Positions 633 through 55,062 of a DNA stretch of 64,000 nt are shown piece by piece. The notes beneath the pieces are model-generated. The model was not told where the DNA came from. It saw only the letters and a program-made list of their open reading frames with translations, and did no database searches. Numbering within the stretch: position 1 is the first letter of the stretch; every line of letters starts with the position of its first letter. The position numbers and the translations under genes are program-made. This DNA is from Candidatus Collierbacteria bacterium (GTDB taxonomy: Bacteria > Patescibacteriota > Microgenomatia > UBA1400 > JACPES01). The stretch spans positions 12,779 through 76,778 of the forward strand of contig JACPES010000002.1 of assembly GCA_016183365.1 (NCBI GenBank), given 5' to 3'.

Positions 633-1355
633 TTAAGTATCTTCGTTGTCGATCGCCAGCGGCGCGGAAATTAAAGTTGTTTCTAGTTCAAAATCGTTGT
701 CTCTCAACTCGACAAAACTCTGATAAGATGAAAATCCGGATTGAGAAAAATTTGACAGGATAATTTCCGTTTTAACCCAATCCTGTTTAATCTTTCCCAA
801 ATAGACAAGGTAAGAAGATGGCTGTGAAGTTATTTGATCATATAAGGATTCTCCCTTAAGGATACTCCCTGAAACCGGGTTTAAATGAATATATCTTGAT
901 ACATGCAATAATTGGGCATCTGATTCAATTAACACCGCCTTATATGATGACTGAAACAAAGTTCCCACGCGTCCATGCCGTTTATTGAAATACATGGTGT
1001 ACCTAGTCATCAACGATCTCATCATTAATTCCATTCCTTGGATATCTTTCTGTTTAATAAGAAAATGAAAATGGTTCGACATCAGACAATAGGCGATTAG
1101 GAAAACCCGGTCAGAGAAATTATTCAGTCTCAACTTCTTTTTGGCTATTTCTTTGTCTTTAGCCGATGAGGAAATGTCAGCCACTATTTTCAAAAGTTTT
1201 TCATGATCGCAAGGCAATAAATATTCTTTAAGATAGGTCAAAAAGACAGAGTAATCCTGTTTATCTTTAAAGATTTTTCTTTTATTCACTCCACGGTTAT
1301 ACACATGATAGTAACAATCCTCGCCGTAGATCTTAAGCGAATTTTTTCCCGGCAT
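633..1355 (-). CDS. IS200-like Y1 tyrosine transposase (REP-associated, RAYT-like)
   Basis: YHVYNRGVNKRKIF ... NHFHFLI ... GTLFQSSYKAVLIESDAQLLHVSRYIHLNPV are hallmark HuH/Y1 motifs. Paralog of the ORF at 4862-5560. Confidence 0.8.
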   Translation of the reverse strand: MPGKNSLKIYGEDCYYHVYNRGVNKRKIFKDKQDYSVFLTYLKEYLLPCDHEKLLKIVADISSSAKDKEIAKKKLRLNNFSDRVFLIAYCLMSNHFHFLIKQKDIQGMELMMRSLMTRYTMYFNKRHGRVGTLFQSSYKAVLIESDAQLLHVSRYIHLNPVSGSILKGESLYDQITSQPSSYLVYLGKIKQDWVKTEIILSNFSQSGFSSYQSFVELRDNDFELETTLISAPLAIDNEDT

Positions 1356-4756: not shown

Positions 4757-4810
4757 CGAAAAGTATAGCAGAAATCTGTTTACTGTTGTTGATTATTTCT
4801 TAATTGATAT

Positions 4811-4858
4811 ATCAATCAATTGAAGGTCTGACCTTCAATGTAGCCATATATCAATCAC
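4811..4858. repeat. REP-like palindromic element (attgaaggtctgaccttcaat + gtagccatatatcaatca)
   Basis: Perfect palindrome ttgaaggtctgaccttcaa. Copies at 5633-5690, 11104-11146 and, in frame inside mrdA, at 34126-34164. Two copies flank the transposase gene at 4862-5560. Confidence 0.75.
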
Positions 4859-4861
4859 TAT

Positions 4862-5560
4862 TTATTCAAGCCGGAGTTTTTTGGTCAATAGTTCGCTTCT
4901 CGGCAGGCAGATCCCAAGCTTGGTATACTCCCAAAATTCATTTTTGTTATTCAGAAGCGACATGACTGGTTCGGTATTTATCCATGGTTCGGGATGGTTT
5001 AAATATGATGACAGGCTACTCCACTGATATTTAGGCAAGTTTTGTTCATTCCATCTAGAAAATTCGCCATTGGCGGGGTTTACGTGAACATAGCGAACGG
5101 CTTGAAGTAATTGTTCATCATGAATAATGGCAACGGATTTGTATTTAGATTCAAATAGTCGTCCTTTGCGTTTTTCGACTTTATTGAAGTACATGGTAAA
5201 GGCTGTTCCCAGTCTTTGCATAAATTTAGCTATGGCAGTTTTCTTATCTTCAGATTCTCCCAAAACTAAATGGAAATGATTATTCATCAATATTAAGGCT
5301 ACAATATCCAAAATCGGAGGCCCGAATTCTTCCTCGGCTTTGCCAATCTTTTCCGGCGTAATTTTATCTCGTTTTAGCCAATCATCAAGTACCGCGATAG
5401 AAGGGGATTTTAACAATCTGGACAGTCTCAAAGTGGTAATAAACCGCCGGCGGTGGTTATCGTTCAGGAAAATCACTCGTTTATCAACTCCGCGATTATA
5501 AACATGAGAAAAGAACCTAACCGGAGTCATCGGAGTCATAATCAATATAACAATATCCAA
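4862..5560 (-). CDS. IS200-like Y1 tyrosine transposase (RAYT-like) flanked by REP copies
   Basis: HVYNRGVDKRVIF ... NNHFHLVL ... GRLFESKYKSVAIIHDEQLLQAVRYVHVNP. Paralog of 633-1355. Confidence 0.8.
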   Translation of the reverse strand: MDIVILIMTPMTPVRFFSHVYNRGVDKRVIFLNDNHRRRFITTLRLSRLLKSPSIAVLDDWLKRDKITPEKIGKAEEEFGPPILDIVALILMNNHFHLVLGESEDKKTAIAKFMQRLGTAFTMYFNKVEKRKGRLFESKYKSVAIIHDEQLLQAVRYVHVNPANGEFSRWNEQNLPKYQWSSLSSYLNHPEPWINTEPVMSLLNNKNEFWEYTKLGICLPRSELLTKKLRLE

Positions 5561-5632
5561 AATATAAACTTTTTACAACCCCATCGAGATATCCATTGTT
5601 GCGACCGTCCCCGCTACTAAAAAGGGTCTATA

Positions 5633-5690
5633 TATCAATTAATTGAAGGTCTGACCTTCAATGTAGCCATGTATCAATGATTATTATTTA
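5633..5690. repeat. REP-like palindromic element, second copy flanking the RAYT gene
   Basis: atcaattaattgaaggtctgaccttcaatgtagccatgtatcaatga. Confidence 0.75.
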
Positions 5691-8670: not shown

Positions 8671-8868
8671 GTCATCGGAAAATTTTATCACACATCTTCT
8701 CCTTTTACTCTTTACTCTATACTTTTTACTCTATACTTTATACTCTAAATAATATATGTTAAGTTTCTTTACACCCTGTCTCATCTTTATTCCAGAGAGG
8801 AAATTTTTGGGTTAAGATCTCAATTATCAAGAGCGGCAACGTCAGTTTTATTAAATTTTGCTGAAGGG

Positions 8869-9060
8869 ATGATGTCTCTTTCTGATAAAGAAAGAAGAAG
8901 ATTCCTGCAAATTTGTATCAATTCAATAGGAGAAATTGTGGCTATCGGGGATTTGTCTTTAGACTTGAATTTTTTTACGGGTATCCAACATCAAGAAATT
9001 TTGGTAAAATCAGAAGATATAATTAAAAGGTTGTATGGTCTAAGGAGAAAGTATGTTTAA
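8869..9060 (+). CDS. small hypothetical protein
   Basis: 63-aa ORF only. Confidence 0.2.
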   Translation: MMSLSDKERRRFLQICINSIGEIVAIGDLSLDLNFFTGIQHQEILVKSEDIIKRLYGLRRKYV

Positions 9061-9096
9061 GTTTCTTACTCTTTACTCTATACTTTTTACCCCTAT

Positions 9097-9270: not shown

Positions 9271-9317
9271 ATTTTCACCCCACGAGTTTTTCAGTCATTC
9301 TCGTCCCCGTGTGTCCT

Positions 9318-9378
9318 TCTCGCGCAGACGGGAATCTATTTAAATAGATTCCTGGTCAAGCCAGGAATGACAAAGTAC
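9318..9378. repeat. palindromic repeat, family C (gggaatctatttaaatagattcc ... ggaatgacaaagtacg)
   Basis: Related copies at 40556-40621 and, diverged, at 16543-16655. All three end 10-25 nt before a plus-strand ATG. Confidence 0.55.
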
Positions 9379-9857
9379 GAAACTTGTGATTTCTTGAAAA
9401 ACAACATTCATTAGCCAAACAATCAACAGAATTGAGAAGTTAATGATGACGCTTAGCGTCAAGGCTTCGGAAAGCGAAGAAATTATAATTAATAACGGTG
9501 AATCCGTGGTTAATGCCATATTAACGCCGGAAAAATAAAAACCGATTCCGGTTATAATTCCCAAAATTATAAGAGGTAGGGTGTGTTTGATATCTACCCA
9601 ACTTGGAAATAGAGAATTTGCAACCGTAAAAAATAAATATAGCTTGAATAAATCTGAAATCTGAAAATTCGAGTGTGGATGAAATCCACACGAGCGGTCC
9701 TAACCCGCTGTCTGCCCCCAAACCTGCCGACCAATCTTCCCAGCTCCGCCGTCATTTTCTGCCGTGTCAGGTACAAAAGTCTCAATCCCGCCAAGCTTAA
9801 TCCAATTTCTTTCACCATCAAAGAATACAGCAAAGTTAAGGAAAAGTTTTACCCACT

Positions 9858-9974
9858 TTATTCCAAGATAGCGAAAACCATGACCGTGAGACTATGGATG
9901 AAGCGATACAGATAGCCGCGGAGCGCACAGTGCGGAACAAAAAACCATGTGAATTGGCGCATGGTTTTTTTATA
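9858..9974. repeat. about 118-bp direct repeat, copy 1 (gene 3' end fragment plus terminator-like hairpin)
   Basis: Nearly identical to 11149-11266. It ends in aaaaaaccatgtgaattggcgcatggttttttt. Confidence 0.7.
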
Positions 9975-10229
9975 TTTTCCTACAGGTAAAGAGCAAAATC
10001 AACCACCTTGAACAGAATCGCAGTTTCCTCCATTTTCGCTAAACCATAATATCCGACTAGCAATGGTTCTTCGATTTTGCATACCCGTCTGGCTTTGCCT
10101 GAAGAGTCGACTTCAGTTCTAAACTGAAATAATCCTGTTCTCGTTTCAGCCATATAGTGAATATTTTATCCAGTATCCTGACAAAGTTTTTCTATCTTGA
10201 CGATTCGGTTTTCTATCAGTTATTATAAA

Positions 10230-10261
10230 TTCCAATTAATTAATCAATTAATTAATTGGAA
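10230..10261. promoter_or_regulatory. 32-nt near-perfect palindrome immediately upstream of the TrpR/YerC-like gene; putative operator
   Basis: ttccaattaattaatcaattaattaattggaa, 7 nt before the ATG. A second copy lies at 10748-10779 just after the stop, and a third variant lies inside the CDS at 52004-52034. Confidence 0.45.
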
Positions 10262-10267
10262 TAAATT

Positions 10268-10720
10268 ATGGCCAGGGTGTCTCTGCGTTGGCTTCAGCCG
10301 GAAGTAGAGGATAAAATTTACCAGCTTTTAGTTGAATGTGTGGCTTCGTGCCGTGATCAAAACGCCGCCGGCAATTTCATCGATGTTCTTTTGACTAAAA
10401 CTGAAAAATTGATGATTGGCAAGCGGATTGCAATCGCCCTGATGCTGATTAAAAACCATATTCCGTCGGAAATAGACGAAAAACTTAAAGTTTCGCAGAC
10501 GACTGTTTATACGGTTAAAACTTGGCTTGATGAGAAAGGTAAAGAATATCGGCAGTTGCTTAAAGAAATTGCCGATCGGGATGAAAGCCAACAAAGGAAA
10601 TATCAAGATTTGCGCCAAGAAGCCGCAGGCGGTTTCCTACCTCCGCGGCCGGGGACAAACTGGAAGGAATTCAAACGCAGCCAATGGCAAAAAGCCAAAT
10701 CCGCCAAAGTTCCATTTTAG
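10268..10720 (+). CDS. TrpR/YerC-YecD-like HTH DNA-binding protein
   Basis: FIDVLLTKTEKLMIGKRIAIALMLIKNHIPSEIDEKLKVSQTTVYTVKTW resembles the Trp-repressor-like YerC/YecD family. Confidence 0.5.
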   Translation: MARVSLRWLQPEVEDKIYQLLVECVASCRDQNAAGNFIDVLLTKTEKLMIGKRIAIALMLIKNHIPSEIDEKLKVSQTTVYTVKTWLDEKGKEYRQLLKEIADRDESQQRKYQDLRQEAAGGFLPPRPGTNWKEFKRSQWQKAKSAKVPF

Positions 10721-10747
10721 TTATTCTATTATTTTTTTCTTTATAAA

Positions 10748-10779
10748 TTCCAATTAATTAATCAATTAATTAATTGGAA
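10748..10779. promoter_or_regulatory. second copy of the 32-nt palindrome, downstream of the TrpR-like gene
   Basis: Sequence identical to 10230-10261. Confidence 0.45.
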
Positions 10780-10933
10780 TAAACGAGTGAGAGATTTTTT
10801 AAGATTTCTTAATAGAAACCTGTATAATTCTTAAAAGTGAGAGCAGAGTAAAAATAGGGCTGTAGTGAAATGGCCCGCCCGCAAAAGCTGTCGCTTTAGC
10901 GATTGCAGGCAGGCATCACGAGGTCTAAATTCT

Positions 10934-11007
10934 AGGGCTGTGATGAAATGGTATCATGGGGGTCTCCAAAACCCCTCTTTCAGGTTCGAATCCTGACAGC
11001 CCTGCCC
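10934..11007 (+). tRNA. tRNA-Trp (anticodon CCA)
   Basis: Acceptor AGGGCTG/CAGCCCT; D stem ATGA/TCAT; anticodon stem GGGGT/ACCCC with loop CTCCAAA; T arm TCAGG-TTCGAAT-CCTGA. Confidence 0.8.
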
Positions 11008-11103
11008 AGGTACCATACGATACCTGGTGGCGAGTGCAGAATTGTACCTGCTAAGGCACCATTCGGAGCCTGGCTTCGCCAGAAGCAAAAGCAGAATGTG
11101 CCG

Positions 11104-11146: not shown

Positions 11147-11148
11147 TT

Positions 11149-11266
11149 TTATTCCAAGATAGCGAAAACCATGACCGTGAGGCCATGGATGAAGCGATAC
11201 AGATAGCCGCGGAGCGCACAGTGCGGAGCAAAAAACCATGTGAGTTGGCGCATGGTTTTTTTATAG
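11149..11266. repeat. about 118-bp direct repeat, copy 2
   Basis: See 9858-9974. Confidence 0.7.
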
Positions 11267-23403: not shown

Positions 23404-23671
23404 TACTAATGTAAAAAATCAATATAAGTCAATCAAATATAAGTCAATCAAAATTTAGGGATAGAATTTTGTTATCTCTTCGGCCAGTTAGGCGGATGTG
23501 TCTTAACAACAGCTATCGATAAAAAGATTTATGTGAGTTACTCTGTCAAAGAAGTAGTTGACCAAATAGATCGACTCCAACACGAACTGGTTCGTGAAGC
23601 GATGAAGATAATGGGAATAAAGTCGGGAGAGGTGTGGATATTTAGGTTGGTTTGACCGGTCAAGATGACAT

Positions 23672-24961
23672 TTACTGCGGGCACTGGTAATTGGAAGGTT
23701 GACAGGTTGCGTTGCAGCATTTGCTGCTTTGGCATTGGGAGTTGGAACTACAACTTTGTCCATTGGGTTTTCTAGTTGGGGTGGGAGTGGGCGTGGGCAG
23801 CGGGTTTCCGCAACAGTAACCCCCGGAAGGGACACAAGTCCCCGAGGCGGTATATTTTCCCAACTGGTAGCAACTGACTCCGTAATAACACTGCCCTGTA
23901 CAAGTTGAAGCCGGAGTGGGAGTGGAAGTAGGTCTCGGTGTGGGAGTGGAAGTAGGACGAGGAGTAGGTGTGGGAGTAGGCTTTTTGGTCGGTGTGGGAG
24001 TAGGCTTTTTGGTGGGTGTGGGAGTGGAAGTAGGTCTCGGTGTGGGAGTAGGGGTGGGTGTGCCAATGGTAAATCTATTACTTGCTGAAACAGGGACTAA
24101 TTGACTATCTTGCGTGAAAGAATTGGAGGCATAAACACTCCAGTAATATTCGTGACCACGGATGAGATCGAACACATTACACTCGATTGCTTCTTCAGCG
24201 GGGGGGTTGGAGTAAAATCTTTGTTCGCATGTAGTTCTGGTTGTGCCGCTGGTTACGTCATACAACTGATAATAATGGCTAACAGGCCTATAACAATTGT
24301 GCCAGATAATTCGTGAATTAAGATGTACATCTTGCACGTCAGGGGGAAATTTGGTGTAGTTCGGCGGGTAATCAAGGATAATTTCCGGTTTCTGTCCTGG
24401 ACAGGCGTTAACACTGAAATTTCTGGTTTCAGAAAGTAATTCCAGGTAGGTTCTACTACTGGCTTTCACTTGCCACGAGTATTCGTTGCCCCAAGAAACC
24501 GGTACTGAACACTCAAATTCCCAAACTGATTTTCCAAACTCGTATGATTCACAGGATGGGATGGTAGTACCGGTGGTTAAGTTGGAAAAGACGATATAGT
24601 ATCTTGTCTCTTCCGAGCACTCCTTAATATCAAAAGATCCGGTAAGTTTAACCATACTTGTATCATCGGGAAAAGAGAAATTATCTGCCGGGGTAGAGAG
24701 AGTAATTTCAGGGAAGTCTCCAGTACAGAGCGGTATAGCTGGTATTGGCATAATTGATTTGGAGGCCAAGGAATAGATTCTTTGGGTATTTTGAAAAAGA
24801 AATATTCCTATTACCAGACCAATTGCCAGACCAACACCGAGTCGAAACAGGACAGTTAGATTTCGAGAATCGAGATTTTTTTTGAGTTTTTTGAGATTAT
24901 TTTGAAATTGCTTCATTAGCATCAGTATTATTAGTGTTTCACTTGGCGACATGAATGTCAA
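23672..24961 (-). CDS. cell-surface protein: signal anchor, beta-rich domains, Pro/Thr linker and a Cys-rich C-terminal module
   Basis: N-terminal TM helix ([22 protein letters not shown]), a [23 protein letters not shown]... linker, and a C-terminal cluster of about 18 Cys. Confidence 0.55.
23905..24062. repeat. tandem repeats that encode the Pro/Thr-rich linker
   Basis: Repeated ggtgtgggagtggaagtaggtctc units. Confidence 0.6.
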
Positions 24962-29375: not shown

Positions 29376-29403
29376 GAATTCAATTATTTAAATAATTGAA
29401 GTA
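29376..29403. terminator. perfect palindrome ttcaattatttaaataattgaa just 3' of mreB; possible bidirectional terminator or binding site
   Basis: Identical palindromes at 34794-34817 and 53617-53640, each just 3' of a gene end. Confidence 0.4.
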
Positions 29404-32262: not shown

Positions 32263-32686
32263 TATTTTTTTGTTGGCGCTGACTTTTATAATCTCCGGGG
32301 CAGAACCATTTTTGGGATCATTTAGTCTGGCTGCCATTTGGGCGGCGGCGCTGGGAGTAAAAAAACAGGATATTCTCGGGGCATTGTTGACATTTATATT
32401 AGGTTTGGTTCGGGATATACTATTGATTAATAGATTGGGACAATCGTCAATTATTTTATTGGCAGTTTGGACTTTAGCCGGAATAATATCTTCCAAATTG
32501 TCAAAAAATTTATTTTCAGTTGCAGTCTCGGCCTTTGGTGGATATTTAATCTTAAGTTTAGTAGAAATAGGGACGATCAATATTTGGGGGACGTTAATTA
32601 CGGTTATAATATCAATATTAATTGTTGAAATTTGGACGCTGAAAGATTCCCGCGAATCGGGAATTAAAGTCAGATTGTCTTCATGA
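32222..32686 (+). CDS. mreD: rod-shape-determining protein MreD (putative)
   Basis: Small polytopic membrane protein between mreC and mrdA. Confidence 0.5.
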   Translation: MPALTLFFSYQMNNIFLLALTFIISGAEPFLGSFSLAAIWAAALGVKKQDILGALLTFILGLVRDILLINRLGQSSIILLAVWTLAGIISSKLSKNLFSVAVSAFGGYLILSLVEIGTINIWGTLITVIISILIVEIWTLKDSRESGIKVRLSS

Positions 32687-34446
32687 AGTTTGGACCGTTG
32701 GAATTATCAATCGCTGATAGAAAACAAAATTTTTTGCCGCTGGGAATAATGGTCGTAATTATGATGTCCGCAGTGGGTATAATTTTGGCCAGACTGACGG
32801 AATTGACGGTTTTTCGCGGAGGAGAATTAAGGCGCCGGGCGGACGAAAACAGGATTTTGGTTAGGGTGGTCCCGGCTCCCCGGGGAATAATTTTTGATAA
32901 AAATGGAAAGGCATTGACTCGGAATACTCCGGATGGCAGAGCCTATCCATTTGACCGGAATTTTTCTCACTTGACCGGATATATCGGCGAAGCTTCAGAG
33001 GAAGAAATTAAAAGCGATTCATCTCTAAACCCTGGTAATATTTTAGGAAAAACCGGATTGGAAAAGCAATACGATAAGGAGTTGCGCGGAATCGATGGAG
33101 CTGAATTGATTGAAGTGGATGCAAATGGCAATTTACTTGAGGTTTTAGAGGATCAATTACCACAGGCGGGAAAAGATATTTATACTTATTTAGATGTGGA
33201 TTTACAAGTTGCCATGACTGAAAATTTAGGGGGAAGAAAAGGGGCGGCTGTGGCAATTGATCCGGTGGATGGCTCAGTTTTGGGATTGGTTTCCAGTCCG
33301 TCGTATGACCCGAATATATTTCAGAAAACTCTGAATACAATCATTCCGGAAAACTCAGAAAACTCGGATGGCCGGAAAGTCGGAATGTCAGAAAATCAGA
33401 AAGTCGGACCCTCTGGTTCTCCGAGTTCTCCGAGTGTTCTGGACTTATTGAATGACACCGTCAATATGCCATTATTTAACCGCGCCATTTCCGGCGAATA
33501 TCCGCCGGGATCTATTTTTAAATTGGTGACGGCGGCAGCGGGATTGTCAGAAAATAAAATTAACCGCCAAACTTTAGTTAGGGATACCGGTGAGATCAGA
33601 GTCGGAGACTTTAGATTCGGCAATTGGTATTTTGATCAGTATGGAAAAACCGAAGGCGAAATCGGAGTGGTCAGGGCTTTAACCAGAAGCAACGATATTT
33701 TTTTCTATAAAGTCGGGGAATGGTTGGGGCCGGATCTATTAGCAGGATGGGCTAAAAAAATGAAACTGGGTAAAAAAACAGGTATTGATTTATCCGGAGA
33801 AGCCGATGGTTTGGTTCCTGACCCTAAATGGAGGGAAAAGGCTACAGGTGAAAGATGGTTCTTGGGAAATACTTATCATATGGCCATCGGTCAGGGTGAT
33901 GTTCAATTGACTCCATTGCAGGCGGCGGTGATGACCAGTACGGTGATTACCGGCAAACGCTGTACGCCGCGGATTAAACAATTAACAATCAGCAATCAGC
34001 AATCAGCAATTTCTTGTGAAGATACAGGAGTTTCTAAAAGTAACCGCAATTTAATTCTTGAAGGAATGGTGGGATCCTGCAGTCCGGGCGGGGTGACCTT
34101 TCCGTTTTTCCCTTGGAATCAATCCATTGAAGGTCAGACCTTCAATGAAGCCATACATCAATCAAACGGTATGAGCGGTTATCCGGCTGTGGCGTGTAAA
34201 ACTGGCACGGCCCAGCATGGTGGAAAACAGACTAAACCGCACGCGTGGATTGTAGTCGCTGCCCCAATTATTGAAAGCCAACCATCAGTAAAATCAGCAA
34301 TTAGCAATTCTTCTTATCAACTCGATTTAGACTCTCCCAAACGAATAATTTTAGTCGTTCTTGTCGAAGATGCCGGCGAGGGCTCCTACGAAGCCGCTCC
34401 TGTGGCCAAAAAGATTTTGGAAAAATGGTTTGAAACCAATAAATAA
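32683..34446 (+). CDS. mrdA: penicillin-binding protein 2 (peptidoglycan transpeptidase) with three in-frame repeat insertions
   Basis: AAVAIDPVDGSVLGLVSSPSYDPN ... SIFKLVTAAAGL (SxxK) ... KTGTAQ. Insertions at 33347-33440, 33978-34012 and 34126-34164. Confidence 0.85.
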   Translation: MKFGPLELSIADRKQNFLPLGIMVVIMMSAVGIILARLTELTVFRGGELRRRADENRILVRVVPAPRGIIFDKNGKALTRNTPDGRAYPFDRNFSHLTGYIGEASEEEIKSDSSLNPGNILGKTGLEKQYDKELRGIDGAELIEVDANGNLLEVLEDQLPQAGKDIYTYLDVDLQVAMTENLGGRKGAAVAIDPVDGSVLGLVSSPSYDPNIFQKTLNTIIPENSENSDGRKVGMSENQKVGPSGSPSSPSVLDLLNDTVNMPLFNRAISGEYPPGSIFKLVTAAAGLSENKINRQTLVRDTGEIRVGDFRFGNWYFDQYGKTEGEIGVVRALTRSNDIFFYKVGEWLGPDLLAGWAKKMKLGKKTGIDLSGEADGLVPDPKWREKATGERWFLGNTYHMAIGQGDVQLTPLQAAVMTSTVITGKRCTPRIKQLTISNQQSAISCEDTGVSKSNRNLILEGMVGSCSPGGVTFPFFPWNQSIEGQTFNEAIHQSNGMSGYPAVACKTGTAQHGGKQTKPHAWIVVAAPIIESQPSVKSAISNSSYQLDLDSPKRIILVVLVEDAGEGSYEAAPVAKKILEKWFETNK

Positions 34447-34682: not shown

Positions 34683-34922
34683 CCAGAATAGCGAAATCCG
34701 CGTTTCCACCGAGAACTATATAGATTCCGAGTAATCGCTGTAAATCTTAGAAGAAAATAGGGGAAGCCATTGCCTTCTGGCGGAAAAGCTTTACTTCAAT
34801 TATTTAAATAATTGAAGTGTTTTTCTGGAAGTGCCAACGTCCCGACTTCTCCAATTAACTCTGATCTTAAGATGACTCTCTTGGTGATGCCTTCCTAGGC
34901 GAAGCGATATGATCTGGTAATT

Positions 34923-39235: not shown

Positions 39236-39961
39236 ATGTTTAAGCGTTTATTTGGAGGACACCGGAACAAAGTTTACAAAACTAACGGATTTGTGAAGGT
39301 CATATGGAAAGATGGTTTTAGAAGACAAAACCAAATCCGCGAGGGGGTTAGCTTAGAAAATTTTGTGGCGACTCATATAGATATTAAAGCCCGGATGTTA
39401 GTTGACAAGTCTAAGCCGGTTGAAGAAGAAGACGGGGGATTGGTAACCTATTTTCATTACGCCGAAGGCGAGATCCGCTATCCATGGAATTTGGATGAAA
39501 TTGCTTCGGCGGCGAAATTGCTTACTAGGTTTCATCAGCATTTAAAGGCCTGGCCTTCGCCGCGGGGGCCAGGCCTTATCAGACAACTCCATCTGGATTT
39601 TGCCCGCGGCAACGTACTATTTCAGCCCGGATCCTCGAACGCTATCGGCGTCATCGACTTCGAAACCACAGCCATTGGTCCGGTTGAACAAGATCTCGGC
39701 CGCACCCTAAGCTTTATTTTAGTTGATTCGCCCATTAATTTAAATAGGGAAGATCCTTTAAGGAGTATCCTTCAAGGATCTTCCTTTTTTGAGAGATGGA
39801 ACACCTTATTGACAAATTACTCTCTGACATTTAGAAAAGACAAGGTGATAAACTGGACCTTGCGGTACTTGACCGACGAAGACTACGGGAGTTTAAACTA
39901 CATAAGAGATAAAGCAATTTCATGGCTGCATGACAGTGTTGTTAACAATTTAACAATTTAG
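39236..39961 (+). CDS. phosphotransferase (APH/choline-kinase-like) family protein
   Basis: HLDFARGNVLF ... GVIDFETTAIGPVEQDL is the Brenner kinase motif. Contains the ggagtatccttcaaggatc repeat in frame. Confidence 0.45.
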   Translation: MFKRLFGGHRNKVYKTNGFVKVIWKDGFRRQNQIREGVSLENFVATHIDIKARMLVDKSKPVEEEDGGLVTYFHYAEGEIRYPWNLDEIASAAKLLTRFHQHLKAWPSPRGPGLIRQLHLDFARGNVLFQPGSSNAIGVIDFETTAIGPVEQDLGRTLSFILVDSPINLNREDPLRSILQGSSFFERWNTLLTNYSLTFRKDKVINWTLRYLTDEDYGSLNYIRDKAISWLHDSVVNNLTI

Positions 39962-40555: not shown

Positions 40556-40621
40556 ATGTCATTCCCGCGAAAGCGGGAATCTATTTAAATAGATTCTGGA
40601 TCAAGTCCGGAATGACAGTGA
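40556..40621. repeat. palindromic repeat, family C, best-preserved copy
   Basis: atgtcattcccgcgaaagcgggaatctatttaaatagattctggatcaagtccggaatgacagtg. Confidence 0.6.
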
Positions 40622-41671: not shown

Positions 41672-41750
41672 TTGTTATTTTGTTATCTTGTTATCTTGTT
41701 ACGAATCAAGATAGCAAGCTAGCAAGATAGCAAGCTAGCGATTATTCTTG
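41672..41750. repeat. long palindromic hairpin between the dCMP deaminase and thyA-like genes
   Basis: ttgttatcttgttatcttgttacgaatcaagatagcaagctagcaagatagcaa. Confidence 0.5.
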
Positions 41751-43325
41751 AACTGGCCAAAGTATTTTAAAGATCGCCTCATCGTCGGCAACCCCGACTC
41801 CGACTCTGCCATTGCCACTCTGTGGACGCCAATGAACGTGGTGGCGAAAATGGCGGATGCTTCAAAAATATCGATCATCGGCCAACTGTATACTAAAAGG
41901 GGAATAAATTATTTGTTAAGGAATATTTTTCTAAACCCGAGGATCAAACGAATTCTTTTGACAGGAGCAGACTTGATGGGAAGCGGCGAGACATTGTTAA
42001 ATATGGCCTCAAAAGGTGTAACCTTGCATGGCAAAGTTACACCTTATCAGATGGATTGGCTGGATGAAAATATTTCTATTGATGGGATGAAAACCTTTAT
42101 TAATAATGTCGAAATCGTAGATCAAATCGGGACAGTTTCGCCGGAGAAAGTATCCGTTTTCGTCGATGAAAGTAGCATTGGGAAAAAATGGTCAAAACCG
42201 ATTGAATTTCCCGAACCGGAAGCGAGCGGGAGCGGGGGATTGCCGAGCGAGGAAACTGTCTTTACGGTCCGGGGCCAAAAAGTTTGGCAAACTTGGATCA
42301 GATTGTTGCGGGAAGTAACGCGGTTTGGGCGGCCCAGCCCAATGATCCATCATTACGGAGCCGAGAGAATTTCTGAAATATTTAATCTGACGGCTGTAGT
42401 TTATAACGAGAATTCTGACATTCCTGATTTGCCGATGTGGCTGCCTTATACTAATGACGACATTAAAAAATATGCGGCCGGATTTTTATCGGCTTCACGA
42501 GGCGATGAAGCTTATACTTACGGTGAACGGATTAAGGCGTATCCGTTAGAACTTTATCAAAAGGAATGGTTAAATGATTCGAATCATTTAACCACCTCTG
42601 ACAGTAAAGGGTTTGTCCGATCGTTAACAAAAACGATAACGGATAAGGGGCTAAATCAACAGGAATTGCTTGCTAAAAAACTCAAGAGCTTTCCGGAAAA
42701 TAAGGGCGCGATTGCAATTCTATGGGAGCCGATTATAGATAATTTTGGATTGAGGGAGATTTGGCGGACGCCGTGCTTGGTTTTAGTCCAGGCCGTAATC
42801 CGCGACAAGAAATTATTTTTAACGGCCTATTTCCGCAGCAACGATATGTACGGAGGCTGGTTTCTGAACGCCTTTGGATTGTTGGCATTTCAAAAAGAAC
42901 TGGCCGGAATGATAGGTCCTGATATTAAGTCAGGGCCGTTAACAACTATTTCTCATTCAGCCCATATTTACGAATCCAGTTGGCAGTTGGCGGAGAAATT
43001 AATCCACGATCATTGGATTGACGTGTCTTGCGAATGGGATCCGAGAGGAAACCTTAATGTCGAAACCGACGGCAAGTTTATTGTCGTCAAACATCTATCT
43101 CCGGACGGGATCTTTCTGGATGAATGCCGCCAAAACGGGATGGATGAAAAGGCCGCCAAAAGATTATGTTTTACGCTGGAATCGGCCGGATTATTTTCTA
43201 CCATCGGAAACGCCATGTATGCCGCCCGTCAAATCGAACGGGCCGAAACGGCGATAAAGTTGGGAATAAAATTTACTTCAGACGAATCCTTGGAACTTGG
43301 TAAATCCAAAAAGGTTACACCTTAA
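41748..43325 (+). CDS. thymidylate synthase-like protein (ThyA-family C-terminal domain) with a long N-terminal extension
   Basis: WRTPCLVLVQAVIRDKKLFLTAYFRSNDMYGGWFLNAFGLLAFQKELAGMIG resembles the ThyA catalytic Cys / RSxD region. 525 aa. Confidence 0.5.
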   Translation: MNWPKYFKDRLIVGNPDSDSAIATLWTPMNVVAKMADASKISIIGQLYTKRGINYLLRNIFLNPRIKRILLTGADLMGSGETLLNMASKGVTLHGKVTPYQMDWLDENISIDGMKTFINNVEIVDQIGTVSPEKVSVFVDESSIGKKWSKPIEFPEPEASGSGGLPSEETVFTVRGQKVWQTWIRLLREVTRFGRPSPMIHHYGAERISEIFNLTAVVYNENSDIPDLPMWLPYTNDDIKKYAAGFLSASRGDEAYTYGERIKAYPLELYQKEWLNDSNHLTTSDSKGFVRSLTKTITDKGLNQQELLAKKLKSFPENKGAIAILWEPIIDNFGLREIWRTPCLVLVQAVIRDKKLFLTAYFRSNDMYGGWFLNAFGLLAFQKELAGMIGPDIKSGPLTTISHSAHIYESSWQLAEKLIHDHWIDVSCEWDPRGNLNVETDGKFIVVKHLSPDGIFLDECRQNGMDEKAAKRLCFTLESAGLFSTIGNAMYAARQIERAETAIKLGIKFTSDESLELGKSKKVTP

Positions 43326-47599: not shown

Positions 47600-48496
47600 A
47601 TGATTATCGATGGGAAAAAATTAGCGGCCGAAAGAGAAAAGAAACTAGCGGGAGAAGTTAGCTTGCTTACGAAAAAAATCGGCCGTCGGCCAAAACTTCT
47701 GGCGGTGGAATTAGCCGATGATGAGGGGAGCAGGTTGTATCTTAAATTAAAGCGAAAAGCGGCAGAAAGGTTGGGAATAGAATTTGAAGTTATAAAAAGG
47801 CCAGGCCTTTCCGGGAAAGGCCTGGCCTTTTTGACTGGTTTTGATATAGATGGGGTGTTTGTTCAGCATCCCAGGGGTTATGACAAACAAAAATGGCAGG
47901 AATTGGTCGATCAAATCCCGCCGGAAAAAGATGTTGATTGTTTGACCAGTGAAAATCTTCAATTGATTAAAGACGGCAAGCCAAGATTTTTGCCGGCTAC
48001 CGTTAAGGCTGTTGGCTACGTCATTCTGAGCGTAGTGAAGGATCCCGTCGGGCCTAATCCTAAATGGGATTCTTCAGTCGTTTCACTCCTTCAGAATGAC
48101 GGGTTATTAAGGCATTTCCTTCTCAACAAGCACGTCGTCATTCTCGGTCGCAGTCCGATTCTTGGTTTACCCCTCTTCTGGTGGTTCAATAGTTTTGGCG
48201 GGAAAGTGACTCTGTTGCATTCGCAAACAAAAAACAAAAAACAAAAAACAAAAAACTCCGATATTCTTATTTCTTCCGTCGGCAAACCCGGAATTATCAT
48301 CGGCAAAATGGTGAAAGAGGGAGCGATTGTCGTTGATTGCGGTTCGCCTTCGGGCGACGTAGCCTTCGGCGAAGTCGCCCCCAAAGCTTCTGCCATCACC
48401 CCGGTCCCCGGCGGCGTCGGCCCCTTAACCGTGGTAAGTTTGATGGAAAATGTGGTAAAATCGGCAAAAGACACATATGCCAAAAAAAGACGATAA
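47600..48496 (+). CDS. folD: bifunctional methylene-THF dehydrogenase/cyclohydrolase FolD with three in-frame repeat insertions
   Basis: MIIDGKKLAAEREKKLAGEV ... LLAVELADDEGSRLYLKLKRKAAERLGIEFEV ... C-terminal GGVGPLTVVSLMENV. Confidence 0.8.
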   Translation: MIIDGKKLAAEREKKLAGEVSLLTKKIGRRPKLLAVELADDEGSRLYLKLKRKAAERLGIEFEVIKRPGLSGKGLAFLTGFDIDGVFVQHPRGYDKQKWQELVDQIPPEKDVDCLTSENLQLIKDGKPRFLPATVKAVGYVILSVVKDPVGPNPKWDSSVVSLLQNDGLLRHFLLNKHVVILGRSPILGLPLFWWFNSFGGKVTLLHSQTKNKKQKTKNSDILISSVGKPGIIIGKMVKEGAIVVDCGSPSGDVAFGEVAPKASAITPVPGGVGPLTVVSLMENVVKSAKDTYAKKRR

Positions 48497-50311: not shown

Positions 50312-51364
50312 TTAAAGAGACCTTGATAATTTTCTGATATTTTCAATTCCCCAGTTTATCCAGTATTTCCAAGACAATGGCAAATCGTGAGCCGGAAAAT
50401 AAGAAAATTGTCCGCCTCCGAAGCCGCGTTTAAAAAGCGATGGTCCGGCAAAACGGTGTGCCGGCTGGTACATCGCGAAGCGGTGAGTCCGCCAGCAGGC
50501 GGATAATTTATCGTCCTCAACATCTCCCCACAAATTATAAGTTTTCATCCCTAGTTTTTTGGCTTCCTGAATTATCGCCCATTGGATCGCGTAGGCCGCC
50601 GGAGTTTTTCTGGCTTCATCACCGGAGGCAGCGTAATGATAAACTGCCTCTTTGCGGCAGAAGATTGCAATTGCCATCGATAAAATTCTTGATAAGGCCT
50701 GGCCTTCCCGGGGAAGGCCAGGCCTTTTAACATAAAAAAATTTCACCGCGTTCTCGTTTTTAAACGCTTTGAACTGTTCCGAGAGAAACTTTCTTGAAAA
50801 CGGCACAAAACCTTCTCGTTTTGCCGTCTTTGTCTGAAGCCTAATGAAATCATCTATTAAACTTTCGTCTTGCGATTTTTCGACTATTATTCCCATCTTC
50901 CCTGCTTTCTTAATCTCATATCTGGTTGATTTCCGCATTTGTCTTAAAAGTTCATCATCGGATAGAGATAAATCCAGAATTCTGGTTAATTGGGCGTGAA
51001 GATGCATCGGGGCGGGACGGAATCCGTTTTGTTTGATAACAGAGGCCAGGGCGTCGGAGTTCCCGGCTTGGGGGCGGATTCTGACGAAAGAACATTTTTC
51101 TTTTAAGGCTATTTCTTTCATCAGCGAAACCGCTTGTTTCCATTGAGAAGAAGAAAAATAATCTTTTAATAATGGTCCGCCCGGAACTGTTAAATACCGG
51201 CCTCTTTTAGCCGGTTCAACGATGATCTGAAACATGCCTTGATCAAAACTGATTCTATAAACAGGGTGATTTAATTTTAAGTGAAATTCTCCCCAGGCCC
51301 AAGATTGCAGAAAGTTGGCTTCCGGGAATTTATCGAGATTATTCTCCCAATCTTGTTTAGTCAT
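50312..51364 (-). CDS. FemAB-family (FemX-like aminoacyltransferase) protein
   Basis: Two GNAT-like halves with a FemAB-like YHYAASGDEARKTPAAYAIQWAIIQEAKKLGMKTYNLWG region. Lies next to cell-wall genes. Confidence 0.55.
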   Translation of the reverse strand: MTKQDWENNLDKFPEANFLQSWAWGEFHLKLNHPVYRISFDQGMFQIIVEPAKRGRYLTVPGGPLLKDYFSSSQWKQAVSLMKEIALKEKCSFVRIRPQAGNSDALASVIKQNGFRPAPMHLHAQLTRILDLSLSDDELLRQMRKSTRYEIKKAGKMGIIVEKSQDESLIDDFIRLQTKTAKREGFVPFSRKFLSEQFKAFKNENAVKFFYVKRPGLPREGQALSRILSMAIAIFCRKEAVYHYAASGDEARKTPAAYAIQWAIIQEAKKLGMKTYNLWGDVEDDKLSACWRTHRFAMYQPAHRFAGPSLFKRGFGGGQFSYFPAHDLPLSWKYWINWGIENIRKLSRSL

Positions 51365-51376
51365 ATATATATCAAA

Positions 51377-52732
51377 CTATTGTAAAAAGGCCAGGCCTTT
51401 ATGATACTTTATGATATAGTTTGTTCTTTTTGAGTACTTGTTAATCAATTCAGCCAAAATTTTTGCTTTATTCTGATCGATATTTATATGTGTCGGCAGA
51501 TTTAAAATATGCAGGCTTAAATTTTCGGCGTTGCGACAAGAGCCAAGTCGGTATTTGACTCGAGAATTATCAACCCACTTGGGAGATACAGGCGCGTCAT
51601 ACCAGTGATCCATAAGATAAAAACCGTGTTTGGTCAATTTTTTTTCCAATTCATCGCGGTTGCCTACCCAAACCGGGTAGCGTAAATTAGAACCATTTTT
51701 AATATCAAGAGCAATTATCAACTTGAGCCTTTTATAAATAACATGATCATAAATTAAGGCAATATTCCGGCGGTGGACAATAATTTTCTCTAACTTGCTT
51801 AGTTGGTTTAGGATCAATGCGGCCAGAGCGTTTGGCAGGGAAGTGAGTTTGTCAGGCGCGTCTAGAGAAGAGGGGAGAAGGTCTAATTCTTTGCCGACAA
51901 AATGGATTATTTTTCCCAATCCAATATTGTAAGTTTGCCGTATCGTCGAAGTCAGCAGGGGATAGAAAAGACTTTTTGTAATATTAATTTTACTCCAATT
52001 AATTAATTGATTAATTGATTGGAATGATTGGCGATGAGATTTGAGTGATGAAATTAATGCCCCTCCGGAGACGCCGTCGATAACTTTGTCTTGGGAGAAG
52101 GAAAGAATGATGGCGTCGGGACAAATGGGATGATTAAGAGTGTTAAGAGTGTTAGGATGGTGAAGTAGATTATTGTCATCATAACCATCGTAATCATCTA
52201 ACCATCTAGCTTCAGCGCCGAGCGCGTGGGCGAGGTCTTGGATGACAATAATCTTGTGATTCCGGCACCAGTTTACGATTTGATCGTTTTCCCGGTTGAG
52301 ATATCCCAAGGTATGTTGGAGAATAAGGGCTTTAGTTTTGGGAGAAACTGATTTTTTTATTTGCGCCAAGGATGGATTGAGATTTTTGGGACCGACATCA
52401 ACGTAAATTGGAATAGCCCCTAAATCCAAAATCGGTTGAACCACGGCCACACAGGTAAAAGCTTGGACAATGACTTCGTCACCCTGTCCGATTTTAAGAA
52501 TTTTCAGGGCTTCATAAATTGCCTGCCTGCCTTTTAGAAACAACCGTATGCTGACATCATTGTTTCGCCCCGCCTCGGCGGGACGAAACTTCACAAACTT
52601 CGCAAGCAGTGTTTGCTCAAGCAAACTTGTTTCTTTACCCTTTAGCCATTTCCACGGTTGGAAAAGAAGTTTGATGGCTAAAGTTAGATCCGCGGACGAG
52701 TAGTTTGATCCCAGAGAGTTGGTGATAATCAC
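51377..52732 (-). CDS. DegT/DnrJ/EryC1/StrS-family PLP-dependent aminotransferase with in-frame palindromic insertions
   Basis: GDEVIVQAFTCVAVVQPILDLGAIPIYVDV resembles the DegT family (fold type I). Insertions near 52004-52034 and 52540-52620. Confidence 0.7.
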   Translation of the reverse strand: MIITNSLGSNYSSADLTLAIKLLFQPWKWLKGKETSLLEQTLLAKFVKFRPAEAGRNNDVSIRLFLKGRQAIYEALKILKIGQGDEVIVQAFTCVAVVQPILDLGAIPIYVDVGPKNLNPSLAQIKKSVSPKTKALILQHTLGYLNRENDQIVNWCRNHKIIVIQDLAHALGAEARWLDDYDGYDDNNLLHHPNTLNTLNHPICPDAIILSFSQDKVIDGVSGGALISSLKSHRQSFQSINQLINWSKINITKSLFYPLLTSTIRQTYNIGLGKIIHFVGKELDLLPSSLDAPDKLTSLPNALAALILNQLSKLEKIIVHRRNIALIYDHVIYKRLKLIIALDIKNGSNLRYPVWVGNRDELEKKLTKHGFYLMDHWYDAPVSPKWVDNSRVKYRLGSCRNAENLSLHILNLPTHINIDQNKAKILAELINKYSKRTNYIIKYHKGLAFLQ

Positions 52733-53597: not shown

Positions 53598-53622
53598 TCT
53601 ATTAACCCGAGAAAAACTTCAA

Positions 53623-55062
53623 TTATTTAAATAATTGAAGTTTTTGAAATGCTAGGCGTTTTTTATCCCAGAATTTTCCGCGGCGGCAGAGATTAGAGAT
53701 ATCCGATTTGTTTTCTAGCAGCGTCTCGACCACGATCTCTAAAAAAATCGTGTTTTGAGATCCCTTGACTAAGATTATTTCTCCGCCGGAGATAAATTCG
53801 TGCTTCTCAATTATGGAGATTTGTCTGGCAGAGCCGGATCTCGCTCCGCGAGACGATCCTGCCAATAAAAACTTGGCCGCTTCTCCGGCAGTCAAAAACC
53901 ATTCGACCGGCAGTTTCGACTGTTTGATTATCGGTAGAGCGTATTGTTTCATCAATGGTCCGACGAGGACTATTTTATCCGCGGTTTTCACCGCTACCTC
54001 AGCTATTTTTTCGTGTTCTATTTTAGCCTGCGAACCCAGTTCGCGCATGTCCCCCAAAACCGCGATTTTGGTTTTATTTCCTCCAATATTTTGAAGCATT
54101 TTCAGACTGCCGATTACCGTTTCCCGCGAGGCGTTATAAGAAGAATCAATGATGGCGGTATTTTTAATTCCCGGAAAAATCCAACCGCGCCCCGATGGTA
54201 GTTTGAATCCTGCCGAGATTTTTTCGGCTATGGCTTGAGGATCTTGACCCAAACAAATTCCGGTGGCGAAAGCCGCCGATAAAGTGAATCCGTAAAATTC
54301 CGGCAAAATCATATTTTTTAATGAAATTTGATATTCCCGTTGTTTAAATGAAAGTAATACCTCTGTTTGAGAAAGCGAAGGAATAACGTTTAAAATTTTA
54401 ACATCGGCTGCCGGCGATTTTCCAAAGGTTAAAGTTCTTGCTCCAGCTGATTTCGGTTTCAGTGAATTTATTTCCGGTTGATCGGCGTTTAAAATAGCCC
54501 ATTGCAAATTTTGATTTTCGGTTATAAGTTTTCCCTTCTCTGCGGCGATGGACTCTATTAAGGTCAGACATTTCCGTACGACCAGGTCTGACCTTTCAAA
54601 CTGTTCTGTATGTACCGGCAAAACGTTTAAAATTACAGCTATATCCGGTTTTAAGATTGTCAGCAAATAGCCCATGTTTTTGGGCGAAGTCGGTTCGTCG
54701 ATGCCCATTTCGACGAGATAACAATCGAAAGAATTGCTAATTGCTGATTGCTGATTGTTAATTGTTTTAATAGCTTGAATTGGCGCCAATGCGAGGATGC
54801 GTAGCCAGTCAAAAATAGGATGAACCGACTCGCCGAAATGAAGGCCGAGAATGTCGGCCGGAATGCCGGATTCGGAATTGGCTTTTTCGGCAACTTTAAG
54901 ATTTTTAAATTTTAGTTTTAATACCGGCGCGATTGCGTCTATGGCGCTGGATTTTCCGGCCGAACCGGTGATTCCGACAATAAAAGGATTGCTTTTCTTA
55001 AGCGCAAACAAGGCCCAAAATCTAAGCCACCATAAAATCGGCCAACGAAAAATGCGTTTCAT
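53623..55062 (-). CDS. murF: Mur ligase family protein (MurF-like UDP-MurNAc-peptide D-Ala-D-Ala ligase)
   Basis: IVGITGSAGKSS P-loop ... NSESGIPADILGL. Carries an in-frame NQQSAIS repeat insertion. Confidence 0.65.
   Translation of the reverse strand: MKRIFRWPILWWLRFWALFALKKSNPFIVGITGSAGKSSAIDAIAPVLKLKFKNLKVAEKANSESGIPADILGLHFGESVHPIFDWLRILALAPIQAIKTINNQQSAISNSFDCYLVEMGIDEPTSPKNMGYLLTILKPDIAVILNVLPVHTEQFERSDLVVRKCLTLIESIAAEKGKLITENQNLQWAILNADQPEINSLKPKSAGARTLTFGKSPAADVKILNVIPSLSQTEVLLSFKQREYQISLKNMILPEFYGFTLSAAFATGICLGQDPQAIAEKISAGFKLPSGRGWIFPGIKNTAIIDSSYNASRETVIGSLKMLQNIGGNKTKIAVLGDMRELGSQAKIEHEKIAEVAVKTADKIVLVGPLMKQYALPIIKQSKLPVEWFLTAGEAAKFLLAGSSRGARSGSARQISIIEKHEFISGGEIILVKGSQNTIFLEIVVETLLENKSDISNLCRRGKFWDKKRLAFQKLQLFK

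Follow-up and report, generated by a model that had tools for sequence, protein, structure and literature searches.

The YerC/HisR and TrpR regulators bind palindromes of 18-20 bp, and HisR often autoregulates (PMC9413887). HisR (YerC of B. subtilis) and YerC/YecD are small proteins with a TrpR-type helix-turn-helix (HTH) fold, and their palindromic operators of about 20 bp have half-sites on either side of a 6-8-bp spacer; autoregulation is suggested by a site that precedes the protein's own gene, and the consensus of the motif is lineage-specific (PMC9413887). A similar arrangement is seen at a gene for a 150-amino-acid TrpR-family protein in a 64-kb stretch of DNA (the window, i.e., the whole stretch analyzed) from an uncultured Collierbacteria genome of the Microgenomates group within the candidate phyla radiation (CPR). 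The gene is bracketed by two identical palindromic repeats, and a third copy lies in frame within a gene for a DegT-family aminotransferase (Table 1). On balance, the gene probably encodes an autoregulated TrpR-family repressor with paired cognate operators and a few dispersed sites that are related to these by copying.

Compared with the described repressors, the locus has unusual additions, namely perfect palindromes of 26-36 bp, bracketing on both sides, and in-frame copies in enzyme loops. HisR and TrpR are shorter than 110 amino acids, whereas the protein encoded here has a conserved helical C-terminal extension of about 50 residues that ends in NW...PF. HisR controls genes for histidine biosynthesis or uptake; here, neither his nor trp genes are close to the sites (no his genes were among the genes checked beside them), which fall at the regulator's own gene, in DegT, and at the ends of cell-envelope genes; the palindromes are longer and perfect, one copy follows the gene, and others are in frame within conserved genes. 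E. coli TrpR, the best structural match, has operators at trp, aroH, and trpR with the same 18-bp frame (5+8+5) and autoregulates at the last of these, and tandem binding of TrpR dimers is indicated by the title of PDB entry 1TRR, which was among the Foldseek matches. However, sequence identity with TrpR is about 20%, the half-site here is YRAT(TA) rather than the GNACT of TrpR, and the proposed operators flank the gene on both sides.

A second kind of system with a comparable layout is the REPtron, in which a RAYT (TnpA-REP) gene stands between cognate REP palindromes, the presumed targets of its product, and in which these palindromes are dispersed, lineage-variable, inherited with the gene, and found in tolerated positions (PMC8266576, PMC3733652, PMC3337134). 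As in REPtrons, the flanking repeat also occurs elsewhere in the genome (two flanking copies and one in DegT). In contrast to REPtrons, the bracketed gene encodes an HTH protein that has no Y1_Tnp match and no HUH/Y1 domain, the palindromes are perfect with zero loop, neither a high copy number nor a GTAG/CGTC tag was found within the window, and the upstream copy is fixed relative to the promoter. In 2000, Ogata and colleagues reportedly described in-frame insertions of Rickettsia palindromic elements (RPEs) into protein-coding genes. RPEs are 100-150 bp long, occur in many copies, and are unlinked to a gene for a cognate DNA-binding protein. Like RPEs, the palindromic DNA in the DegT, ThyA-like, and PBP2 genes of the window is translated in permissive variable loops of conserved proteins.

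Table 1. Positions in the window of the regulator gene, its flanking repeats, and related palindromes (UTR, untranslated region; SD, Shine-Dalgarno; L027 is one of the orthologous loci described in the text).
Feature	Position	Strand	Remarks
Sigma70-like promoter	10197-10226	+	TTGACG-18 nt-TATTAT; the -10 hexamer ends 3 nt before the palindrome
Upstream 43-nt repeat, candidate operator over transcription start and 5' UTR	10223-10265 (core 10230-10261)	+	right arm has the only SD-like GGA
TrpR-family HTH gene	10268-10720	+	150 amino acids; Pfam PF01371
Downstream 43-nt repeat, candidate second operator at gene end	10741-10783 (core 10748-10779)	+	100% identical to upstream copy
Short form TTCAATTATTTAAATAATTGAA (CAATTA-N6-TAATTG)	29379-29400		between mreB 3' end and IMPDH gene; core as upstream in L027
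Short form ACTTCAATTATTTAAATAATTGAAGT	34793-34818		identical to the L027 26-mer; between convergent PBP2 and PIN genes
Same-class palindrome TGGTTAAATGATTCGAATCATTTAACCA	42567-42594	+	perfect, 28 nt; in frame, WLNDSNHLTT, in ORF 41748-43325
DegT/DnrJ/EryC1 aminotransferase gene, first of a DegT-FemAB pair	51377-52732	-	Pfam DegT_DnrJ_EryC1
Third copy in DegT hypervariable loop	51989-52025 (core 51993-52024)	-	in frame, FQSINQLINWS
Short form with A5/T5 flanks AAAAACTTCAATTATTTAAATAATTGAAGTTTTT	53612-53645		between convergent transglutaminase-like and Mur-ligase genes

Of the perfect palindromes in the window, 24 have arms of 9 nt or more, whereas shuffled sequences yield 0-3. Among the 24, the 32-mer TTCCAATTAATTAATCAATTAATTAATTGGAA occurs in two exact copies that enclose the TrpR-like open reading frame (ORF), and no comparable match arose in 100 dinucleotide-preserving shuffles. 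An earlier note on this DNA had described the ORF as bracketed by identical 32-nt palindromes, which is borne out, the stretch of complete identity being 43 nt long (TTATAAATTCCAATTAATTAATCAATTAATTAATTGGAATAAA; repeat family D11). The palindrome has arms of 15 nt around a central CA, or 16 nt if the flanking A/T is counted. The upstream copy is separated from the ATG by 6 nt, and the downstream copy begins 27 nt after the end of the stop codon. When 65 non-overlapping ORFs of at least 100 amino acids were compared, the longest repeat shared between two flanks in the window was that of the TrpR-like gene.

The third copy has two mismatches to the 32-mer over its core, and in the longer alignment 35 of 37 positions agree, including the asymmetric center CA and the 3' TAAA, which match on the minus strand. 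The earlier note had recognized this near-identical palindrome and its reading SINQLINWS correctly, but had placed it at 52004-52034, about 10 nt from its actual position. A symmetric dimer cannot select the central CA or the 3' TAAA, which are common to all three long-type copies in the window; these copies are therefore related by copying or gene conversion, and arose by copying and not by convergence. Three long-type copies are present in 64 kb, and no extra copies were found in about 25 kb of orthologous loci. The many gene-independent copies that the earlier note had named as contrary evidence were thus not encountered in the window, nor were further copies found in scans of GTDB, JGI, and IMG/VR, collections that lack the source genome. 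In the GTDB genomes and JGI metagenomes, only the L001/L016 contig was related, all remaining matches being (TTAA)n microsatellites or unrelated AT-rich palindromes, and an IMG/VR scan with the short-form palindrome found nothing.

The encoded protein matches the Pfam Trp_repressor family (PF01371; E=9e-10; 38.9 bits against a cut-off of 27), residues 19-100 aligning with profile positions 4-86 of 88. Its scores lie below the NCBIfam cut-offs for the TrpR equivalog (TIGR01321; 27 against 67.25 bits) and for yecD_yerC (TIGR02531; 19.8 against 42.2 bits), and for this reason the description as TrpR/YerC-like in the earlier note holds for the TrpR family but is too specific with respect to YerC. 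In an AlphaFold2 model (pLDDT 85.8), helices are present at residues 11-26, 31-41, 44-61, 66-73, and 77-89, the TrpR fold spans residues ~10-100, and the C-terminal extension contains helices at 92-121 and 132-146. Foldseek superimposed this model on E. coli TrpR with a TM score of 0.75-0.80 and a root-mean-square deviation of 2.1 Å over 92 residues, and the best 40 PDB matches were all TrpR or YerC-like chains (TM score by target, 0.67-0.80), which assigns the predicted structure to the TrpR-like HTH fold. The family profile also matches the YerC/HisR-like PDB structures 3frw, 3g1c, and 3kor. By Pfam and fold, the protein is thus a member of the TrpR family, and is neither TrpR proper nor YerC/HisR. 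No HUH/Y1 or other recognizable catalytic domain was detected in ORF 10268-10720 by Pfam, NCBIfam, or the AlphaFold2 model.

An exhaustive profile search returned 445 clusters (50% identity) at E<=1e-10, mostly of about 148 amino acids and matching end to end, with LLTxTEK, KR, LKVS-x-x-T, and the C-terminal NW...PF as conserved features. The family is sizeable, has a fixed architecture, and comes entirely from metagenomes, which appear to be of the CPR/Patescibacteria type. A word-based search yielded 25 homologues with 53-92% identity, and a precomputed PF01371 match is present in all 24 full-length homologues and absent from the truncated P0025. The GC content of the gene is 44.8%, against 43.5% for the window. 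No relatives were found in IMG/VR (protein scan), PHROGs, or PADLOC, no paper on the family was found in a literature search, and an exact look-up returned no database record for the window protein or for P0022. A scan of GTDB, in which the clade is not represented, gave 134 pattern matches with the family alignment, none of which was confirmed.

Support for a functional relation between gene and palindrome comes from the DNA of 10 independent orthologous loci (L001, L004, L005, L006, and L025-L030), which encode proteins with ~55-92% identity. A perfect palindrome of 22-36 nt lies directly upstream of the ATG in 10 of 10 loci, and a cognate palindrome is also present downstream in eight of the nine loci with enough downstream sequence, 1-100 nt past the stop codon. 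The window (100% protein identity) and L001 (92%) have the long type on both sides, with one mismatch in the right arm of the upstream copy in L001. L004 (65%) has the long type of the window upstream and the short CTCCAATTAATTAATTAATTGGAG downstream, and L029 (70%) similarly has the long ATTTCAATTAATTAATCAGTTAATTAATTGAAAT upstream and the short ATTTCAATTAATTAATTAATTGAAAT downstream; as both loci combine a long with a short form, one protein presumably reads both. L028 (68%) has TCCAATCATTTAAATGATTGGA upstream and the same palindrome 1 nt past the stop codon, and L005 (60%) has ATTTCGATTATTCGAATAATCGAAAT on both sides. The two copies are ACATCAATCTTTCGAAAGATTGATGT and AATCTTTCGAAAGATTGAT in L025 (65%), and ACTCTAATGTTTTAAAACATTAGAGT and ATTACAATGTTTTAAAACATTGTAAT in L026 (59%). 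In L006 (69%), AATTTCAATTAATCAATTGATTGAAATT is upstream and TATTTCAATTAATCAATTAATTGAAATA follows the next gene, which encodes a methyltransferase. L030 (57%) has TTCGATTATTCGAATAATCGAA upstream and no second copy in 750 nt downstream, and L027 (56%), the contig of which ends downstream, has ACTTCAATTATTTAAATAATTGAAGT upstream. The only other perfect palindrome in these loci (arms of at least 10 nt, or at least 8 nt in L028-L030) is a G+C-rich one in L025 (1506-1527).

The palindromes therefore vary between lineages (CCAATTAATT.., CCAATCATTTAAATGATTGG, TCGATTATTCGAATAATCGA, CAATCTTTCGAAAGATTG, YAATGTTTTAAAACATTR, CAATTATTTAAATAATTG), and all retain YRAT-N10-ATYR. Bracketing by these candidate sites is conserved; their sequence is specific to the lineage and changes in parallel on the two sides of the gene. 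Since the palindrome changes along with the gene between lineages, it is most likely the protein's own binding site. Some neighborhoods are shared: the window and L001 have both neighbors in common, L004 and L030 have an RF1 gene downstream and different palindrome types, and L029 and L006 have the upstream gene in common. Such partial synteny argues for vertical inheritance with sites that change in place, and not for repeated transposition of a cassette. In the window and in L001 the gene is followed by tRNA-Trp, but a link with it was rejected because other orthologues have different neighbors.

The 18-bp core YRAT-N10-ATYR can be read as CAATT-N8-AATTG or as CAATTA-N6-TAATTG, and the operators of TrpR and HisR(YerC) have 5+8+5 and 7+6+7 layouts, respectively (PMC9413887). 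In its geometry, the putative operator core matches those of TrpR and HisR. The outer half-sites of the long form are 26 bp apart, and it holds three overlapping YAAT-N10-ATTR frames with 4-bp offsets, of which the outer two are offset by 8 bp. This is the offset at which TrpR dimers bind in tandem (compare PDB 1TRR). The six central bases are palindromic in most variants (TTTAAA, TTCGAA, ATTAAT), a symmetry that suits a dimer bound to duplex DNA better than it suits an RNA hairpin.

In the recognition helix (S76-x-x-T79), the serine and threonine are near-invariant, the two middle residues are variable across the family, and residues 77-78 align with the DNA-contact residues I79/A80 of TrpR. 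The identity of residues 77-79 can be compared with the half-site found beside each gene. QTT or QAT (window, L001, L004, L029, L027) and LPT (L006) occur with CAATTA, LTT (L028) with CAATCA, LGT with CGATTA (L005, L030) or CAATCT (L025), and VAT (L026) with YAATGT. All proteins with Q77 are therefore accompanied by CAATTA, and those with another residue mostly by other half-sites, L006 (L77) having CAATTA again.

The position of the upstream copy suggests a role in transcription. A TTGAC-type -35 element, a spacer of 17-18 nt, and a -10 hexamer followed within 0-6 nt by the palindrome are found in the window, L001, L004, L005, L025, and L027, and the palindrome of L029 overlaps the -35 element. 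The upstream neighbor is transcribed divergently in the window and in 9 of 10 orthologues (co-directional only in L027), so that the upstream copy is not a terminator for a preceding gene. As this copy in the window starts just past the -10 hexamer and spans the predicted transcription start, bound protein would repress the gene. The TrpR-like protein, presumably as a dimer, would bind the palindrome via two 4-6-bp half-sites, YRAT(TA), in the 18-bp frame; on the upstream site, which would cover the transcription start and the whole 5' UTR, it would block its own transcription (negative autoregulation). It is very probable that the protein binds these palindromes, and most likely that it represses its own promoter. 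The suggestion in the earlier note that the palindromes are autoregulatory operators thus gains support on comparative grounds, i.e., from the promoter position, the flanking on both sides, the covariation between lineages, and the TrpR/HisR-like geometry.

The downstream copy would give the transcription unit a second cognate site at its end, which could aid repression by looping over about 500 bp or, alternatively, serve as a protein roadblock or as an insulator from the next promoter, in this case the tRNA-Trp promoter. This conserved copy could also be a by-product of the spread of sites. Phased looping received no support, since the center-to-center distances of 487-611 bp, which were worked out by hand from the coordinates, have no common phase. 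Further binding sites would be provided by the DegT loop copy and probably by the three short forms, and their role may be regulatory or architectural. The copies within genes and at gene ends would either form a small regulon or represent a palindromic element, linked to the protein, that is tolerated at these positions.

The DegT protein of the window (Pfam DegT_DnrJ_EryC1, E=1e-37) and NCBI MBI2309370.1 from Candidatus Collierbacteria bacterium have the same sequence (100% identity). When 20 homologues were aligned, the peptide encoded by the palindrome fell between the conserved GGAL and YP motifs, where the alignment is hypervariable. At the same place, mostly ending nine residues before YP, other DegT homologues have exact translations of other lineage-specific palindromes that had been found independently as DNA beside TrpR-like genes; codons in these homologues were inferred, and matching refers to exact peptides and palindromes seen as DNA. 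P0038 has YSNHLNDWS (TCC AAT CAT TTA AAT GAT TGG AGT), the L028 type; P0030 has DFNYLNNCS (TTC AAT TAT TTA AAT AAT TGT AGT), the L027 type with one change that avoids TGA; and P0044 has HYNVLKHCS (TAC AAT GTT TTA AAA CAT TGT AGT), the L026 downstream type. LNDSNHL in P0033, P0034, P0035, and P0151 (inferred as TTAAATGATTCGAATCATTTAA) corresponds to the window palindrome at 42567-42594, of which LNDLNHL in P0043 (inferred as TTAAATGATTTAAATCATTTAA) is a single-codon variant. Further homologues contain unrelated palindromic repeats in the same loop position (VIPAKAGIY..RFRVKPGMT or RRGNL..DRHAPIVSGLAMT), the former corresponding to a repeat present in the window at 9312-9372 and 40557-40617. A scan of the DegT homologues for palindrome compatibility by back-translation was set aside, as ordinary peptides are compatible up to about 26 nt.

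A ThyA/MtrA/pterin-binding fusion gene contains the palindrome at 42567-42594 in a variable region. ThyA-like homologues have NDSNHL, NDLNHL, SNLLKDWS (CCAATCTTTTAAAAGATTGG), or DFNYLNNCS in this region. In two cases, a DegT and a ThyA-like gene apparently share a contig, to judge by its length and source (P0034 and P0304, 70,566 nt; P0151 and P0308, 101,715 nt), and both genes have the NDSNHL type, which is consistent with one predicted palindrome type per genome. Within the window, DegT has the long type and the ThyA-like gene the NDSNHL type, and the ThyA-like P0301, which is 91% identical to the window protein, instead has DFNYLNNCS about 15 residues further along. The mixed types and the difference in P0301 indicate fast turnover and that several types are possible per genome.

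Two repeat families with translations in DegT homologues have copies in the window. The 61-nt element at 9312-9372 and 40557-40617 (GTCATTCC...GGGAATCTATTTAAATAGATTCC...GGAATGACA) resembles a miniature inverted-repeat transposable element, and its translation is found in frame in DegT homologue loops of related genomes. A G+C-rich palindrome family with A/T-run flanks (AAGGCCTGGCCTT...AAGGCCAGGCCTT; 47794-47832, 50694-50726, and 39545-39586) resembles bidirectional terminators, and its translation, KKARPFLKRPGLF, is seen at the C-termini and in loops of DegT homologues.

The 26-mer of the L027 type occurs three times in the window (at 29379, 34793, and 53612), always at gene ends, with T-runs beside the copies at 34793 and 53612, the latter of which looks like a bidirectional terminator. 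CAATTA-N6-TAATTG has three perfect occurrences and one with a single mismatch in the window (0.44 expected), and AATNNTTNNAANNATT has five (0.65 expected). Because the protein appears to read both long and short forms, the short-form copies are plausible extra sites, and the three at gene ends are probably additional sites of the same protein.

Several observations weigh against an autoregulated repressor with paired operators. The half-sites of the long form have a separation of 26 bp instead of 18 bp, and perfect symmetry over 26-36 bp exceeds what a TrpR-type dimer should read, real operators usually being imperfect. The covariation between helix and half-site over 11 loci is suggestive and is confounded by phylogeny. 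At least three palindrome types (long, CAATTATTTAAATAATTG three times, and AATGATTCGAATCATT once) are present in 64 kb, in which one regulator gene is seen. The shared CA/TAAA asymmetries indicate copy-and-paste or gene conversion and not selection for binding, and the presence of unrelated repeats in the same DegT and ThyA-like loops, together with the fast turnover exemplified by P0301, looks like the behavior of selfish elements.

The shared asymmetries and the behavior of the loops also count in favor of a REPtron-like selfish system, in which the palindromes would be a small family of non-autonomous elements that spread by copy-and-paste, mobilized by an unknown activity or in trans by the genome's HUH transposases, which resemble the REP-associated RAYT proteins. 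The TrpR-like gene would be their conserved home or specificity factor and not a conventional regulator of genes, and the genome would tolerate their insertion into the DegT and ThyA-like loops and at gene ends. In the window, two genes that rank next after the TrpR-like gene as bracketed genes encode IS200/RAYT-like Y1_Tnp proteins: ORF 633-1355(-), with 39.3 bits, between repeats at 601-630 and 1358-1387, and ORF 4862-5560(-), with 20.8 bits (below the 23-bit cut-off), between repeats at 4807-4862 and 5630-5685. Their repeats (AAGGAGTCTCCTT... and ATTGAAGGTCTGACCTTCAAT) have dispersed copies at 843, 26452, and 39759 and at 11095 and 34114, respectively. With two Y1 genes each flanked by its own dispersed repeat, REPtron-like systems seem to be present in this genome, and the recurrence of the L027 operator 26-mer at the ends of unrelated genes would also suit such spread. 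Nevertheless, we regard this explanation of the TrpR-like locus as rather unlikely, since the flanked protein has no HUH, Y1, or other recognizable catalytic domain, copies are few (three per 64 kb, and only the two flanking ones in each orthologous locus), the GTAG and CGTC tags of REP sequences are absent, lineages with different palindromes remain syntenic at the locus, the upstream copy has a constant position with respect to the promoter, and viral contigs, PHROGs, and PADLOC yielded no relatives. The proposal in the earlier note that a mobile palindromic family captured the gene is unlikely in that form, because the association of gene and palindrome is old (it extends to 55% identity) and loci with different palindromes have neighbors in common. 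A flavor of mobile elements may nonetheless persist, in that the shared asymmetries point to copying and the palindromes seem to turn over quickly in permissive loops. A broader variant, to which we give a low probability, is that the ~148-aa family is the DNA-binding partner of a new class of lineage-specific, perfect 22-36-bp palindromes that spread by copying around the gene of the protein itself, to gene ends, and, in frame, into tolerant loops of enzymes including DegT and the ThyA-like protein; if so, the REP/RAYT symbiosis would have a counterpart based on an HTH protein, or the family would belong to a site-specific system for organizing or insulating chromosomes, and would not be an ordinary metabolic repressor.

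An effect at the RNA level only, without protein binding, would require the 5' UTR hairpin to hide the SD-like GGA and the 3' hairpin to stabilize or terminate the mRNA. The upstream copy is indeed stable as RNA (-16.4 kcal/mol, z=-5.3), its 3' (right) arm contains the sole SD-like purines before the ATG in most orthologues, the downstream copies closely follow the stop codon, and the short forms at 34793 and 53612 have terminator-like T-runs; hence, the 5' hairpin may contribute to translational control. As the whole explanation, however, this is very unlikely: a hairpin requires neither an identical sequence at both gene ends and in DegT nor parallel change between lineages, and the loop positions are palindromic, without asymmetries of the G-U type, so that the symmetry is that of DNA. 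Moreover, the flanking copies lack a T-run and neither was called as a terminator (the stem is A+T-only except for GG/CC and is followed by TAAA), and an Rfam scan found only tRNAs and no family matching the palindrome. Least probable of all is a recombination cassette, in which the direct copies would be recombinase sites (Xer/pdif-module-like or integron-cassette-like) that move the small gene, with the DegT copy as a solo site. Although the flanking repeats are identical 43-nt direct repeats, the 10/11-6-10/11 layouts recall tyrosine-recombinase core sites, and neighborhoods differ between many orthologues, no recombinase gene adjoins the TrpR-like gene, either in the window or in the 10 orthologous loci, and the symmetric central regions give no directionality such as Xer/pdif or integron sites would have. 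Partial synteny between lineages with different palindromes also speaks against cassettes, as does the tie of the upstream copy to promoter and ATG; in addition, the L006 bracket encloses two genes, and in L030 the 750 nt downstream contain no second copy.

An autoregulated repressor of this kind would be of interest because almost nothing is known about CPR transcription factors and their sites, and CPR bacteria cannot grow alone. A conserved small regulator with readable, lineage-varying sites is a natural specificity series for TrpR-fold proteins (residues 77-78 versus half-site) that is accessible with purified protein and synthetic DNA, without culture. If the extra copies are functional, they would constitute the first CPR regulon, with a cell-envelope theme in the window; if they are selfish, they would represent a new kind of protein-linked palindromic element and would explain part of the odd loop insertions in CPR proteins.

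Other repeats were observed in the window. The repeat of the second Y1 gene at 34114-34169 (ATTGAAGGTCAGACCTTCAAT) lies in frame within the PBP2 ORF 32683-34446 and is read IEGQTFN, an example of the tolerance of coding sequences in this genome for palindromic repeats. A 118-nt direct repeat (9857-9974 and 11148-11265; 97% identity) with a terminator-like hairpin at its end encloses the divergent ORF, the TrpR-like gene, and tRNA-Trp, and ORF 9980-10153, compared with its L001 orthologue, appears to have been truncated by the first copy of this repeat. Just upstream of the intact tRNA-Trp (10933-11008) is a tRNA-Trp fragment, in which 17 nt (10858-10874) match the L001 tRNA-Trp gene exactly at its 5' end and are followed by an interruption of about 38 nt and then by CATCAC (10913-10918); the fragment is apparently a relic of a rearrangement or insertion. 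Two exact copies of a 25-nt direct repeat (TTACTCTTTACTCTATACTTTTTAC; 8705-8729 and 9066-9090) bracket ORF 8869-9060, which weakly matches the family of 23S rRNA intervening-sequence proteins, between tRNA-Thr and rpmG. Finally, a tandem array of 12/24-nt units (GTGGGAGTGGAAGTAGG...) at 23892-24082 lies inside the overlapping minus-strand ORFs 23503-24066 and 23672-24961 and probably encodes a low-complexity repeat segment of a protein.

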